Assembly: GCA_902785905.1 (NCBI GenBank)
Contig: CADAAM010000001.1
Location: 27,320-91,319 of the forward strand
Direction: 5' to 3'
Source of the DNA: Oscillospiraceae bacterium
Lineage (GTDB): Bacteria; Bacillota; Clostridia; Oscillospirales; Oscillospiraceae
DNA: 64,000 nucleotides
Under the pieces are notes generated by a model that was not told where the DNA came from, searched no databases, and saw only the letters and a list, made by a program, of their open reading frames with translations. This document shows positions 55,569 to 58,834 of the stretch, in pieces (positions within the stretch are counted from its first letter, which is position 1; every line of letters begins with the position of its first letter). The position numbers were made by a program, and so were the translations under genes.

Positions 55569-57143
55569 ATGAGAAGATTGATCTATATTCTTGTCGTTTT
55601 TATTCTGATCGGCGGTATTATTCTGACTGCCTATGCGCCGGATGATGTCTCCACCGTGTTCATCGTGATGATGGAGGTCATTGTGTTTGCCGGGGTCATA
55701 CTCGGCATTTTCCCCGTGCTGCAGTATTACCGCGCTCTTGAAATCGGACTTGAGAACATTGAGCGGGCGCTGGAGGTACAGACAAGCTCTACCTGGTCGG
55801 TCATGGCACAGATTGAGGACTTTTTCCATCAGCGCACCATGGACGATATTTTTCATGACTATCAGGAAAAGATTCAGATCCAGCGGGACTCCGGGCAGGT
55901 TCTGACTGATATTGAAGACTACCTCAACGAGGATGTGCTGGCGCTGAGAAGCTGGCAGAACATTATCGCGCAGATTCCGGGCACATTGACCGGTCTCGGC
56001 ATCCTGGGCACGTTCATCGGCCTGATCATCGGTATCCGCGGCATCGGCTTCAGCTCGGTTGAAATTGCGCTGACCAGTGTGCAGACGCTTCTGTCCGGTA
56101 TTCAGGTGGCTTTCTATACCTCCATCGCGGGCATGATCCTGTCCCTGATCTTCAATATCACCTACCGTATCTCCTGGAATATGCTTCGGAGAAATCTGGG
56201 GCTGTTCATCGACGAATTTCATAAGAACGTTATTCCGCCCGTGGGCGACCAGATCCGTTACCGCGACCAGAAGCAGGCCAAGCAGATTACCGAGCTGCTG
56301 GAGCGTCTGCCGAAGAACCAGGGCTTCTCGGCCGCGGGCGGTCAGATCGGCGGCGGCGCAAACGTGCAGAACAGCGGGAATGAGCAGATCCTGATGCCTC
56401 AGATCCTTGACGGCCTGCGAAACGGCGAGTTTATCTTCTTTCTGCAGTCCAAATATGATCTGAACACGCGCAGGGTGATCGGCGGCGAGGCTCTCGTACG
56501 TTGGAATCACGGCAAGCTCGGCATGGTCTCGCCCTCCGTGTTCATCCCCATTCTGGAGAACAACGGCTATATCACGAAGCTCGACCGATATATCTGGGAG
56601 AGTGTGTGCGCCACCATCCGCCGCTGGATAGACAACGGCATACGTCCGGTCCCCCTGGCTATCAACGCCACCAAGACCGATGTCCTGGCCATGGACATTG
56701 CGGGCTTCTTTGAAGAAATGATCAAAAAGTACCGCATTCCGCCGCGCTGTCTTGAGATTGAGATTGCGGAGAACGCATATCTCGAGTCCCCGCAATCCGT
56801 TCTTGAGGCGGAGACCAAACTGCGTCAAACGGGCTTCCGTGTCATCGTGGACGGCTTCAACGGGGATTACATCTCCCTCAGCGCGATTGAGTCGCTGTCG
56901 GCGGATATCCTCAAGCTCGATCTTCGCCGCTTTGACGGGCGGCAGAATCAGGGCGCGCTCAGCGCCGTGTTTGACCAGGCCAGAAGACTGAAAATGTCTG
57001 TCGCGGTGGAAGGTATCGAAAGCATGGAGCAGTTGTCCATGCTCCGCAAGTGCGGCTGCTCGGAGGGGCAGGGTTTCTATCTGTCCAAGCCGCTTCCCCT
57101 GGATGAGTTTGAAAAGCAGATTACCGGAGGAAGCGGCAAATGA
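55569..57143 (+). CDS. MotA/TolQ/ExbB-like ion channel domain fused to a C-terminal EAL (c-di-GMP phosphodiesterase-type) domain
   Basis: Four TM helices. The last two (IAQIPGTLTGLGILGTFIGLIIGI and VAFYTSIAGMILSLIFNITY) fit the MotA/ExbB/TolQ signature. A Gly-rich linker follows, then EAL motifs EALVRW, AINAT, EIEIAEN, VDGFNGDY, KLD, VEGIE and GQGFY. The ATG at 55569 follows GAGG. The ORF track starts at 55551. Confidence 0.75.
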   Translation: MRRLIYILVVFILIGGIILTAYAPDDVSTVFIVMMEVIVFAGVILGIFPVLQYYRALEIGLENIERALEVQTSSTWSVMAQIEDFFHQRTMDDIFHDYQEKIQIQRDSGQVLTDIEDYLNEDVLALRSWQNIIAQIPGTLTGLGILGTFIGLIIGIRGIGFSSVEIALTSVQTLLSGIQVAFYTSIAGMILSLIFNITYRISWNMLRRNLGLFIDEFHKNVIPPVGDQIRYRDQKQAKQITELLERLPKNQGFSAAGGQIGGGANVQNSGNEQILMPQILDGLRNGEFIFFLQSKYDLNTRRVIGGEALVRWNHGKLGMVSPSVFIPILENNGYITKLDRYIWESVCATIRRWIDNGIRPVPLAINATKTDVLAMDIAGFFEEMIKKYRIPPRCLEIEIAENAYLESPQSVLEAETKLRQTGFRVIVDGFNGDYISLSAIESLSADILKLDLRRFDGRQNQGALSAVFDQARRLKMSVAVEGIESMEQLSMLRKCGCSEGQGFYLSKPLPLDEFEKQITGGSGK

Positions 57144-58834
57144 AGCGGAAGAAAAATCATAATGACGAGGGGCTGAACTTCTGGCAGCCGGCATCCGATA
57201 TGTTCAGCGCGCTGATGATGATCCTGATGCTGATCATTCTGCTTCTTTGTCTTTATCTTGTACATATTCCCGACAACAGCCAGATTGATCCCTGGTACGG
57301 TGATGAGGAGGGCGGCAGCTGGGACGAGGACGGACGCCCGACGCCCACCATGATCGTCTGGTCGGACGACGACGGGGGCGGCGGGCACACCTTCACACCC
57401 GAACCGACGCCGACACCCACGCCCACGCCAACTCCCACACCGACGCCTACGCCAACTCCCGATCTCCCCGGCAGCGGCGGCGGAGGCGGCGGCGGTACCG
57501 GCGGCGGAAACGGAGCGGGCGAAGGCCCCGGCGACAAGCCGGATACGGGTCTCAAGTCCGCCGTATACGTCATGCTTGTAGACGCGGAAACAGACCGCAC
57601 CATCAAGGAGCCGAATGTGCAATTCGAGCTTTACGGCGGTGAAAACAACGCCCTCCAGATTCTCAACACCTACTATCCTGAACGGCTCTCCTTCCGTTTC
57701 TATGAGACCACCGAGGCCGGGACCTTCTTCTTCCCGGAAAAGCTGATGCTCGGCTCTTATGAGCTGCACGAGCTCTCCGAGCCGGAGGGCTACGACATAT
57801 CCCAGAACATTCCTTTCCTTCTGGCGGACACCTATGATTGGGAGGATCCCTTCGTTGTGCGCGTTCCGGTGATGCCCTCAAAGAATGTCGTCCGCATACA
57901 CATGGTGGACGCCGCGACAGGGCGCAGCATTTCCGGCGGCAGTTTCGATGTCGTTGCAGCCGCAAACATCATCACCGCAGACGGCACGCTGCGCTGTCGT
58001 GTGGGGCAGGTAGTTGACGAGCTTGTCTGCGATGAAGAGGGATTTGCCGAAAGCACGCCTCTCTATCTCGGACAATACGTTCTCCGGCAGCGTGAGATCC
58101 CCCAGTACTACGCAGGGATTTTGGAGGAGACACCGGTTGCGGTCGAAAAGGCATCCAAGGTTGCGGCCGTGCCGGAGGTTGTCTCCAGTGCGCGCATGCG
58201 GCTTCGCTTTAAGCTGACGGATGAGCTGAATGCCTCCCCCATCTCCGGCGTCCCCTTTGAGATCGTCTCAGGCCGCGGCGAGCATCTGGAAGCCGTAACC
58301 GCTGCGGACGGCAGCTTCACGCTCGACGCCCTCGACAAAGGGACAAACTATCGCATCCGCCAGCTTGATACGGTTGGAAGCTATCGCATCACGACGCCGG
58401 AAACCATTGTCCAGATCGACCCGCTCGGCTATGTCGACGGGGAGGCGGAAAGCGTTGTTGAGGGTACCAACCGCATGATCCGCGTCCAGATCGGCATTAC
58501 GCCCGAATTCGGCAAGGTACAGATCCCCGGCATCAATCTGGCCCTGTACTCGCCCCAGAATGAGCTGATCCGCACCTGGACCACTACCGGGACCGAAGCG
58601 GTCTTCGATTCCCTCGTACCGGGTTCCTACTATGTTGTCAAGGGCTCCGACAAGGAAACCCGCTATGATATCCGCATACTGGATACCGCCGAAGTCCAGC
58701 AGATCATGCTGCACGACAGCTTTACGGTACACTATGTGATCTACGGCGCAGCGCTGCTTCTGTCGATCGGTCTGATCATTCTTCTGGTCACGCGGATCCG
58801 CAGGAAGAGAAAAAAACGGCAAAGCGCCGCATAA
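57140..58834 (+). CDS. MotB/ExbD-like N-terminal TM anchor, PT/Gly linker, four Cna-B/SpaA-like Ig-fold repeats, C-terminal TM helix
   Basis: ATGA overlap with the upstream gene. The N-terminal [23 protein letters not shown] resembles the MotB TM helix with its invariant Asp. Then come the (TP)n run, a Gly run and four repeats of about 95 aa with the pattern v.v..vD..t...i.g..f.l....G.....l..G.Y.l.E...P.GY. The C terminus is [26 protein letters not shown]. There is no OmpA-like domain and no LPXTG motif. Confidence 0.7.
   Translation: [564 protein letters not shown]

Follow-up and report, generated by a model that had tools for sequence, protein, structure and literature searches.

The window, a 64,000-nucleotide stretch of contig CADAAM010000001.1 from an Oscillospiraceae bacterium (assembly GCA_902785905.1, positions 27,320 to 91,319 of the forward strand), contains three consecutive genes, designated here A, B and C, which are the invariant three-gene head of polysaccharide loci. 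Gene A encodes a MotA/ExbB/ZorA-like motor domain that is tethered to an EAL domain, and gene C encodes a Wzz-type co-polymerase domain fused to a P-loop domain resembling that of bacterial tyrosine kinases. Gene B, the subject of this analysis, encodes a protein in which an N-terminal transmembrane (TM) helix of the kind found in motor B subunits is followed by a disordered acidic linker, a stalk of four SpaA/CnaB-fold domains and a second TM helix with a basic tail. The coordinates of these genes, of their domains and of other features of the window and of related loci (designated by L-numbers) are given in Table 1.

The B protein

The ATG of B overlaps the stop codon of A by 4 bp (ATGA), with GGAGGA as its ribosome-binding site. 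That B is a chance open reading frame (ORF) is excluded by more than 270 homologues of 540-598 aa that have the whole architecture, all of them in uncultured Clostridia from the rumen, the ruminant gut, chicken and the human gut. Those homologues that carry a name are annotated as "hypothetical protein," that of the rumen metagenome-assembled genome (MAG) RUG518 is ∼96% identical at the B gene, and none of the 46 species-level hits was identified as a cultured carrier. The full plan, namely a basic N-terminus, the motif W(Q/E)(P/S)xxD, TM1, the linker, four domains, TM2 and the tail, is present in 44 of 44 distinct species-level homologues. In four human-gut metagenome contigs (L115, L140, L155, and L162) A and C are intact but the B gene is fragmented, its sequence being spread over two to four ORFs, which could reflect pseudogenization, assembly error or frameshifting in the Gly-rich or low-complexity region.

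The identity of the N-terminus was assessed with profile hidden Markov models (HMMs), structure databases and the motif itself. The PADLOC HMMs for ZorB1 and ZorB2 align in register with the window protein (E 2e-4, residues 2-42 to profile positions 5-45), the matching motif being [13 protein letters not shown], and ZorB N-terminal HMMs match 20 of 21 members of the B family (best E 9.7e-6), the remaining member being N-terminally truncated. The motor Asp that precedes TM1 in W(Q/E)(P/S)xxD (Asp20 in the window, codon 57197-57199) is conserved in all homologues of both clades of the system, including the one that lacks the EAL domain (see below). The motif also resembles the segment around the essential Asp of Escherichia coli MotB, YADFMTAMM. 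Among structures in the PDB, ZorB (8vvi_A) matches B with an E of 0.08-0.3 only. The isolated N-terminus gives no Pfam match to MotB_plug at E up to 10, and the assignment of B as a motor subunit therefore rests on the ZorB HMMs, the motif and synteny. A sequence-only reading of this DNA had called the N-terminus MotB-like, and this is borne out by the HMM matches, by the Asp found in all homologues and by the translational coupling of B to a MotA_ExbB/ZorA-like gene. An OmpA-like peptidoglycan-binding domain has no match in B in either Pfam or NCBIfam, and in its place the extracytoplasmic part consists of the linker and the four SpaA-fold domains.

The linker contains the (TP)n-polyGly hinge that had been noticed earlier, at residues 85-131 (nt 57392-57532), which read [46 protein letters not shown]. 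The TP run is written in mixed codons and is thus kept at the protein level rather than being a slipped or simple microsatellite. It is restricted to the window's own clade, more distant members having Asp/Glu/Gly-rich linkers, and Gly runs are general. Across the family the linker is 68-110 aa long, of low complexity and strongly acidic (net charge −12 to −34).

The stalk was defined by Pfam, in which SpaA (PF17802) matches three stretches of B (E 1.8e-23) and SdrD_B matches weakly, and by an AlphaFold2 model built from 21 homologues (mean predicted local distance difference test, pLDDT, 77). The model consists of a helix at residues 15-41, disorder at 46-136, four beta-sandwich domains over 138-527 that mostly have a pLDDT of ∼90, and a helix at 529-563. 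The top Foldseek match of B in the PDB is the TIE protein of Bacillus anthracis (6fwv, 1.5e-18), and the further matches, BcpA, SpaA, SpaD, PitA, RrgB, and SdrD, are all Gram-positive pilins or adhesins. The likeness to Cna-B/SpaA/SdrD-B surface proteins seen in the sequence-only reading is upheld in this way, as is its Ig-like interpretation, which structure prediction had been proposed to check. Its four "repeats" are four folds that are not repeated in sequence: when D1 to D4, which are 83-110 aa long, are compared, only D3 and D4 align beyond shuffled controls (z = 7), and the term divergent SpaA-fold domains suits the four better than repeats does.

The search for isopeptide triads that had also been proposed showed them to be absent, the canonical Lys and Glu being replaced. 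When D2 and D3 are aligned by profile to 6fwv and 4oq1, the position of the xTKxD-strand Lys is taken by Met255 in D2 and by Leu359 in D3, and that of the catalytic Glu of YxxxE by Gln317 in D2 and by an invariant Gln408 in D3. By inspection, D1 has Leu for the Lys and Glu211, which varies to Gln in homologues, at the Glu position, while D4 has Ile for the Lys and Lys for the Glu. Because these positions are replaced, the stalk is predicted to be without isopeptide cross-links. For D1, a Lys139-Asn249 isopeptide was entertained and then rejected, since the Glu211 position is not conserved; the two residues would in addition lie at opposite ends of the domain if its opening and closing strands run parallel, as they do in CnaB. 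Judged from typical sizes of CnaB domains and from the 18 nm of the four domains of GldM (PMC9389320), the stalk would be ∼12-18 nm long and would probably reach into the wall zone and not across it, so that the earlier description of B as passing through the wall was overstated. Separately, the most conserved extracytoplasmic motif of the B family lies in D2 (residues 275-290, [15 protein letters not shown]), with T279, D281, T283, R285, and G289 invariant, and may be a ligand- or partner-binding loop.

By hydropathy B has exactly two segments of TM grade, at residues ∼21-43 and ∼529-551. The basic N-terminus, the acidic linker and the 4-10 Lys or Arg residues that are present in the tail of all homologues point, by the positive-inside rule, to a hairpin with both termini in the cytoplasm (N-in/C-in), and this conserved charge pattern agrees with the membrane-to-membrane loop predicted in the sequence-only reading. 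That B is a motor B subunit and has this topology is, taken jointly, very probable. The second TM helix and the basic tail root the base of the stalk in the membrane without sortase processing. It is extremely improbable that B is instead an ordinary adhesin or pilin-like protein that a sortase or a different sorting enzyme processes at a cryptic motif and that uses its N-terminal helix as a signal anchor only, even though SpaA/CnaB folds, a hydrophobic helix and a basic tail are hallmarks of sortase substrates. An LPXTG-like motif was not found near the C-terminal helix, as had been noted before, and there is no conserved pentapeptide before TM2 in the 44 distinct homologues. In the AlphaFold2 model the TM2 helix begins at residue 529, at most three residues past the last beta-strand (520-526), which leaves no linker and therefore no place in which a sorting motif could be presented. 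A cleavable Sec signal peptide is not seen on inspection of the sequence: the hydrophobic stretch starts at residue 21, after a charged region of 20 residues, is 23 residues long, holds the MotB/ZorB motif with its conserved Asp and is not followed by an AxA-type site. The sortase signature TLxTC is absent from every ORF of the window, Pfam domains of sortases and exosortases are absent from all fetched loci, and the isopeptide residues are replaced as described above.

Conservation along B, measured as top-residue frequency, is highest in the motif before TM1 and in TM1 itself (0.78-0.81), is graded over D1 (0.72), D2 (0.65), D4 (0.57), and D3 (0.54), and is lowest in TM2 (0.40). This gradient indicates that the axle helix and the membrane-distal tip of the stalk are under the strongest constraint, while TM2, judged by its sequence, is best regarded as a generic anchor.

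Table 1. Positions of the A, B and C genes, their domains and other features in the window, and of related loci without an EAL domain
Feature	Position	Strand	Remarks
B subunit (main finding)	57140-58834	+	ORF, 564 aa; putative motor subunit
B N-terminus and TM1	57140-57268	+	basic, predicted cytoplasmic MKRKK; motif NFWQPASD(20)MFSAL; TM1 residues 21-43
B disordered acidic linker	57269-57550	+	residues 44-137; pLDDT <50
(TP)11 in B linker	57392-57463	+	
poly-Gly hinge in B linker	57467-57532	+	
Four SpaA/CnaB-fold domains of B	57551-58720	+	Pfam, AlphaFold2, Foldseek
D1 of B stalk	57551-57880	+	
D2 of B stalk	57881-58180	+	
D3 of B stalk	58181-58474	+	
D4 of B stalk	58475-58720	+	
B TM2 and tail	58724-58831	+	residues 529-551 straight after the last strand, then basic tail [13 protein letters not shown]
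A subunit	55551-57143	+	MotA/ExbB/ZorA-like motor domain, tether and EAL
EAL domain of A	56403-57092	+	residues 285-514; Pfam 7.8e-54
C gene	58888-61227	+	Wzz-type co-polymerase domain fused to bacterial tyrosine kinase-like P-loop domain
Wzz domain of C	about 58921-59601	+	
P-loop domain of C	about 59731-60252	+	followed by low-complexity region and extra C-terminal TM segments
VanZ-like membrane protein	61460-62161	+	Pfam; same position in L001 and L002
Wzy-type polymerase (O-antigen ligase family)	62201-63514	+	Wzy_C 2e-9; same position in L001, L002, and L167
Promoter-like site	55208-55236	+	TTGAAA-17-TATAAT with TG; 11 of 12 consensus positions, consensus match only
Locus without EAL	L102:2491-5100		
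Locus without EAL	L165:9001-13007		
Locus without EAL	L166:3994-7573		
Locus without EAL	L167:7237-11148		
Secreted-type GH26 mannanase with N-terminal CBM35	53512-54939	-	divergent, upstream of A
DUF4886 protein	51786-53510	-	next after the GH26 mannanase
RNase P RNA, bacterial class A	16284-16643	+	217.8 bits; sole Rfam match at gathering level in the window

The A and C genes and the polysaccharide loci

The true start of A is probably the ATG at 55569 and not 55551, giving a protein of 524 aa like its closest homologues, and a GAGG ribosome-binding site (55559-55562) precedes this ATG. The motor domain has four TM segments within about residues 1-215, and in the AlphaFold2 model TM4 leads into a single helix, after which a Gly-rich tether that is disordered (residues 239-283 in the 524-aa protein) connects to the EAL domain. 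Pfam MotA_ExbB matches A with an E of 1.5e-8, and the models of ZorA match more strongly (NCBIfam ZorA_2, 5.5e-17; PADLOC ZorA1, 7.7e-20). The PDB sequences that match the motor domain are the ZorA proteins of type I Zorya from Shewanella (8vvn, 2.8e-10), of E. coli (8qyd, 1.9e-7) and of type II (8vvi, 6.5e-5), identified as such in PMC11890865. Two motifs are near-invariant in the family, LTGLGILGTFxGL in TM3 and AFYTSIAG in TM4. Foldseek matches of the A model are dominated by the EAL fold, which has a TM-score of ∼0.8 to BifA, MorA, and RocR, and are uninformative as to the motor part.

An active EAL phosphodiesterase has the residue set E, N, E, D, D, K, E, Q together with loop 6, DFG(T/A)GYSS; the second Asp coordinates metal, and dimerization and the binding of Mg2+ and substrate depend on loop 6 (PMC7290235). 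Aligned to active enzymes, the EAL of the A family retains EALxRW, the Asn, ExE, the first Asp, the Lys, and QG, and the full set of ligands and loop 6 is not present: DDFGTGYSS is replaced by DGF(N/D)GD(Y/F)I(S/A) in all 47 of the A sequences, and the Glu of EGVE is missing in about nine of these 47. With the second Asp and loop 6 degenerate, this domain is most readily seen as a receptor of cyclic di-GMP (c-di-GMP), or at best as a feeble enzyme.

In a sister clade, A is a stand-alone protein of ∼255-268 aa without EAL, as found by an exhaustive search with the motor domain. The B proteins of this clade are built in the same way, from the Asp motif through an acidic, Gly-containing linker and SpaA-fold domains to a C-terminal TM helix and basic tail, and B is followed by a Wzz/P-loop gene and polysaccharide genes. 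A metagenome scan seeded with the EAL-less A recovered mostly the EAL-bearing family and only one EAL-less locus (L102), the others being obtained by protein search and contig look-ups. That B and C persist in the EAL-less clade indicates that motor, stalk and co-polymerase make up the core of the system, with EAL as an add-on.

These observations bear on the possibility that the system is a sensor of the state of the envelope or capsule, in which the stalk would report the mechanical or chemical condition of the wall or capsule and activation of the motor would switch on the EAL phosphodiesterases, lowering local c-di-GMP and feeding back on synthesis. Both TM parts are closest in sequence to ZorA and ZorB, whose motor acts as a sensor of envelope perturbation (PMC11946911), the EAL retains E, N, ExE, D, K, and QG, and five EAL domains on flexible tethers could dimerize when the complex is activated. 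Against this stand the second metal-binding Asp and loop 6, which are degenerate family-wide, the loss of the EGVE Glu in some members (PMC7290235), and the sister clade, since c-di-GMP hydrolysis cannot be the core output of a system that keeps B and C where EAL is lacking. A sensor of this kind is therefore thought unlikely.

The C protein of the window has the Walker A sequence GEGRT, with Arg in place of Lys, which is found in the window's clade only, most homologues having GEGKT and L166 having GNEGTS; the Lys-to-Arg change was considered as a hallmark of the C family and rejected, being confined to this one clade. Since the ATPase of C is not intact in all members, the importance of C probably lies in co-polymerization and not in kinase activity. 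The window's C has no C-terminal Tyr cluster, and it contains a long region rich in Ala, Pro, Glu, and Ser that is followed by extra TM segments (residues ∼690-779), which are missing from shorter homologues. In RUG087 the ORF matching C (L022:3790-6120) has a second match, to the Ig-like part of B (E 4e-29), which suggests a co-polymerase with a SpaA-fold domain of its own.

The three genes occur together wherever they could be followed. The order A-B-C is found in 50 of 51 genome-derived loci (in L018, C is cut by the contig end), with L040 beginning inside B. Among 80 metagenome loci, 58 have this order and 22 end at contig edges. In no locus is A followed by anything other than B and C, and A and B usually overlap. 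Species-level genomes with the module number at least 46, and it is also present in many metagenomes of the rumen and the human gut. The genes 3′ of A-B-C are those usual in variable Wzx/Wzy polysaccharide loci, in the window the VanZ-like protein and Wzy. Elsewhere than in the window, they encode Wzy, Wzx, GT2 and GT4 glycosyltransferases, Stealth proteins, acyl- and pyruvyl-transferases, and Bac_transf proteins, while the genes upstream are variable. One group of candidates from the genome scan (L052-L084) was discarded as unrelated large surface proteins with SpaA repeats that have neither the B N-terminus nor A or C. Between A, B, and C in the window there is no terminator-like site with a strong stem, and neither the leader of ∼330 nt that separates the promoter-like site from A (within 54940-55550) nor the surroundings of the operon contain a c-di-GMP riboswitch or any other Rfam element, at the gathering threshold or at E up to 1. 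The architecture given by the sequence-only reading holds, and what it had missed is the EAL domain on A, the link to the Wzz/P-loop gene and the lack of isopeptide triads.

The same synteny bears on whether A and B are part of a Zorya-type anti-phage defense system that lies beside capsule genes by chance. The best named matches of the pair are indeed the PADLOC and NCBIfam models of ZorA and ZorB, but all of these are below the NCBIfam cut-offs and cover the TM cores only, and the ZorA tail and the ZorB peptidoglycan-binding domain, both of which are required for defense (PMC11890865), are absent. No Zorya effector (ZorC/ZorD, ZorE, or ZorF/G) lies beside A-B in any locus, the PADLOC matches being to the ZorA and ZorB cores only, and the neighbor is always the Wzz/P-loop gene, followed by polysaccharide genes. 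A defense role is accordingly very improbable.

A further alternative is that A and B are a degenerate, non-rotating relic and serve only as a passive scaffold, holding an Ig-like spacer beside the co-polymerase where it might, for instance, gauge or fence in the capsule layer. Such a scaffold would be in keeping with the generic, anchor-like character of TM2 and the tail, with the lack of any match to a peptidoglycan-binding domain or a plug helix, and with the disorder of the linker. The motor Asp, TM1, and the A motifs LTGLGILGTF and AFYTSIAG are nevertheless the most conserved parts, across two clades at 30-40% identity, and this is the pattern expected of a working ion pathway, which argues against a relic and makes it quite improbable.

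Two stretches of the window have a G+C content below the ∼0.60 found elsewhere, namely 34001-36000 (0.46) and 48001-52000 (∼0.50), and may be acquired segments.

A proposed role in polysaccharide assembly

The interpretation favored here is that B is the axle of a ZorAB/MotAB-type motor that is accessory to a Wzx/Wzy capsule or exopolysaccharide machine in monoderm Clostridia, and this is considered moderately probable. A role of the module in polysaccharide assembly, in whatever form, is likely, and any particular mechanical scheme is doubtful. By homology the motor would have the composition A5B2, in which ion flow would rotate the ring of A relative to the axle of B. The stalk would stand on the membrane at TM2, which would root D4, and project into the inner zone of the wall, and the acidic tether, some 90 residues long, would link the conserved outer end of the stalk (D1-D2) to the axle helix. 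Two options can be envisaged for such an arrangement. The stalk could be lodged in the wall beside the co-polymerase, where it would hold B still in place of a peptidoglycan-binding domain. Alternatively, the motor could pull or wind the stalk through the tether, much as in TonB or GldM, and the stalk would then exert its effect on the growing polymer or on the Wzz assembly. In the main clade c-di-GMP bound to the EAL domains would gate the motor.

In its most explicit form, this proposal would make the system a molecular winch, belonging to a hitherto unrecognized class of 5:2 ion-driven motors of Gram-positive bacteria that work on surface polysaccharide, with a self-contained B as both axle and transducer. 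Rotation would wind the acidic tether against the TM2-rooted stalk, and the outcome would be polymer transit or control of chain length at Wzz, with c-di-GMP on the fused degenerate EAL domains acting as a clutch. The winch is put forward tentatively and is on balance improbable.

Several points weigh against an axle of a polysaccharide-linked motor. Synteny is association and not mechanism, the evidence is computational throughout, and every carrier is an uncultured MAG. The A5B2 stoichiometry, together with ion conduction and rotation, is presumed from homology. B has no peptidoglycan-binding domain to fix it, and its TM2, being poorly conserved (0.40), does not point to a docking partner. 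In the AlphaFold2 models both the tether of B and the linker to the EAL of A are disordered, which argues against rigid mechanical coupling. The Walker A motif of C is degenerate in some members and a kinase role for it is doubtful, and most of the catalytic residues of the EAL survive, such that some residual phosphodiesterase activity may be retained.

The A-B-C module bears on the question of how monoderms energize and organize those steps of capsule and exopolysaccharide assembly that take place beyond the membrane. In this widespread set of three genes a stator-like motor is tied genetically to a co-polymerase of polysaccharide and, in most members, the motor appears also to be wired to c-di-GMP. 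Its B subunit is of a new design, with a pilin-fold stalk instead of a peptidoglycan-binding domain and with both ends anchored without a sortase. The association suggests an undescribed motor-assisted step in building the sugar coat of the cell. If the motor is active, 5:2 motors would extend to the biology of surface polysaccharides in gut Firmicutes, and the module would be a compact system in which the anchoring and gating of such motors could be studied.

Comparison with known systems

The job of the non-flagellar relatives of MotAB, ExbBD, and ZorAB in Gram-positive bacteria has been noted as open (PMC9389320). In the searchable literature, which leaves most subscription journals outside it, there is no description of a fusion of MotA or ZorA with EAL, of a B subunit that combines a pilin-fold stalk with a C-terminal anchor, or of stator-like gene pairs that head polysaccharide loci in Gram-positive bacteria, and a survey of MotAB homologues (mBio, 2025) makes no mention of EAL, of Ig-like domains or of a link to polysaccharide.

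By its sequence the system is assigned to the MotA/ExbB-MotB superfamily, closest to ZorAB (8qyd, 8vvn, and 8vvi). ZorAB is the best sequence relative of both TM cores and shares the A-B gene order, a B with an N-terminal TM helix and conserved Asp, and an A with a C-terminal cytoplasmic output or regulatory module. This module is a tethered EAL here and a 70-nm coiled-coil tail in ZorA, and B has an Ig stalk and a second TM helix where ZorB has a peptidoglycan-binding domain. The A-B-C loci also lack the ZorC/D/E effectors, lie in a polysaccharide context rather than in defense islands, and are found in monoderm hosts. With MotAB and PomAB the system shares a four-TM A with the GxxGT and TM4 motifs, overlapping A and B genes, and a B motif, (Y/S)xD-F/M-x-x-A-x-M, before a single TM helix. 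It differs from them in that there is no Pfam match to MotB_plug or OmpA and there are no flagellar genes nearby, A has no recognizable torque interface of the FliG type, and B is anchored at both ends.

The stalk brings to mind GldLM and PorLM, in which an N-terminal TM helix is likewise followed by four extracytoplasmic domains as a long shaft; that of GldM is 18 nm long and has been proposed to carry the work of the motor outward (PMC9389320). The likeness is confined to the four-domain shaft, as there is no Pfam match to GldM or GldL, and the hosts of GldLM are diderm Bacteroidota, unlike those of B. Moreover, the shaft of GldM follows its TM helix directly and has its far end free for GldKN, whereas the shaft of B is reversed, being connected to the axle by a flexible linker and having a C-terminal TM helix of its own. 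A possible analogy is provided by ExbBD-TonB and TolQR-TolA, in which an extended Pro-rich spacer reaches outward and rotation is thought to pull the partner (PMC9389320). These systems consist of an axle and a separately anchored partner, and in B both elements are fused. The anchor helix of B, however, is C-terminal and poorly conserved, and there is neither a C-terminal domain of TonB or TolA nor an outer membrane.

Sortase-anchored pilins and MSCRAMM B-repeats (BcpA, SpaA, SdrD, and TIE) share with B the fold of the stalk, the C-terminal hydrophobic helix and the basic tail, but B has no signal peptide, LPXTG or isopeptide Lys and Glu and stays an integral hairpin membrane protein. With regard to the EAL domain of A, c-di-GMP also acts directly at a MotA-type subunit in the case of the stator brakes and clutches YcgR and MotI/DgrA, and in LapD and FimX an EAL fold whose loop 6 or metal ligands are degenerate serves as a receptor. 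In contrast to these proteins, the putative sensor is here fused to A, and its output would presumably be polysaccharide assembly rather than flagellar rotation or adhesin retention.

The Agl-Nfs system, which functions in sporulation of Myxococcus, is a diderm, multi-protein, trans-envelope complex without an Ig-stalk B subunit or an EAL fusion, and its genes are not at the head of a polysaccharide locus. Its AglRQS motor, of the MotAB/TolQR type, works together with Nfs to move the Wzy-pathway polysaccharide of the spore coat (PMC3858216), and it thereby provides a functional precedent for the link between a motor and polysaccharide that is proposed here for A, B, and C.

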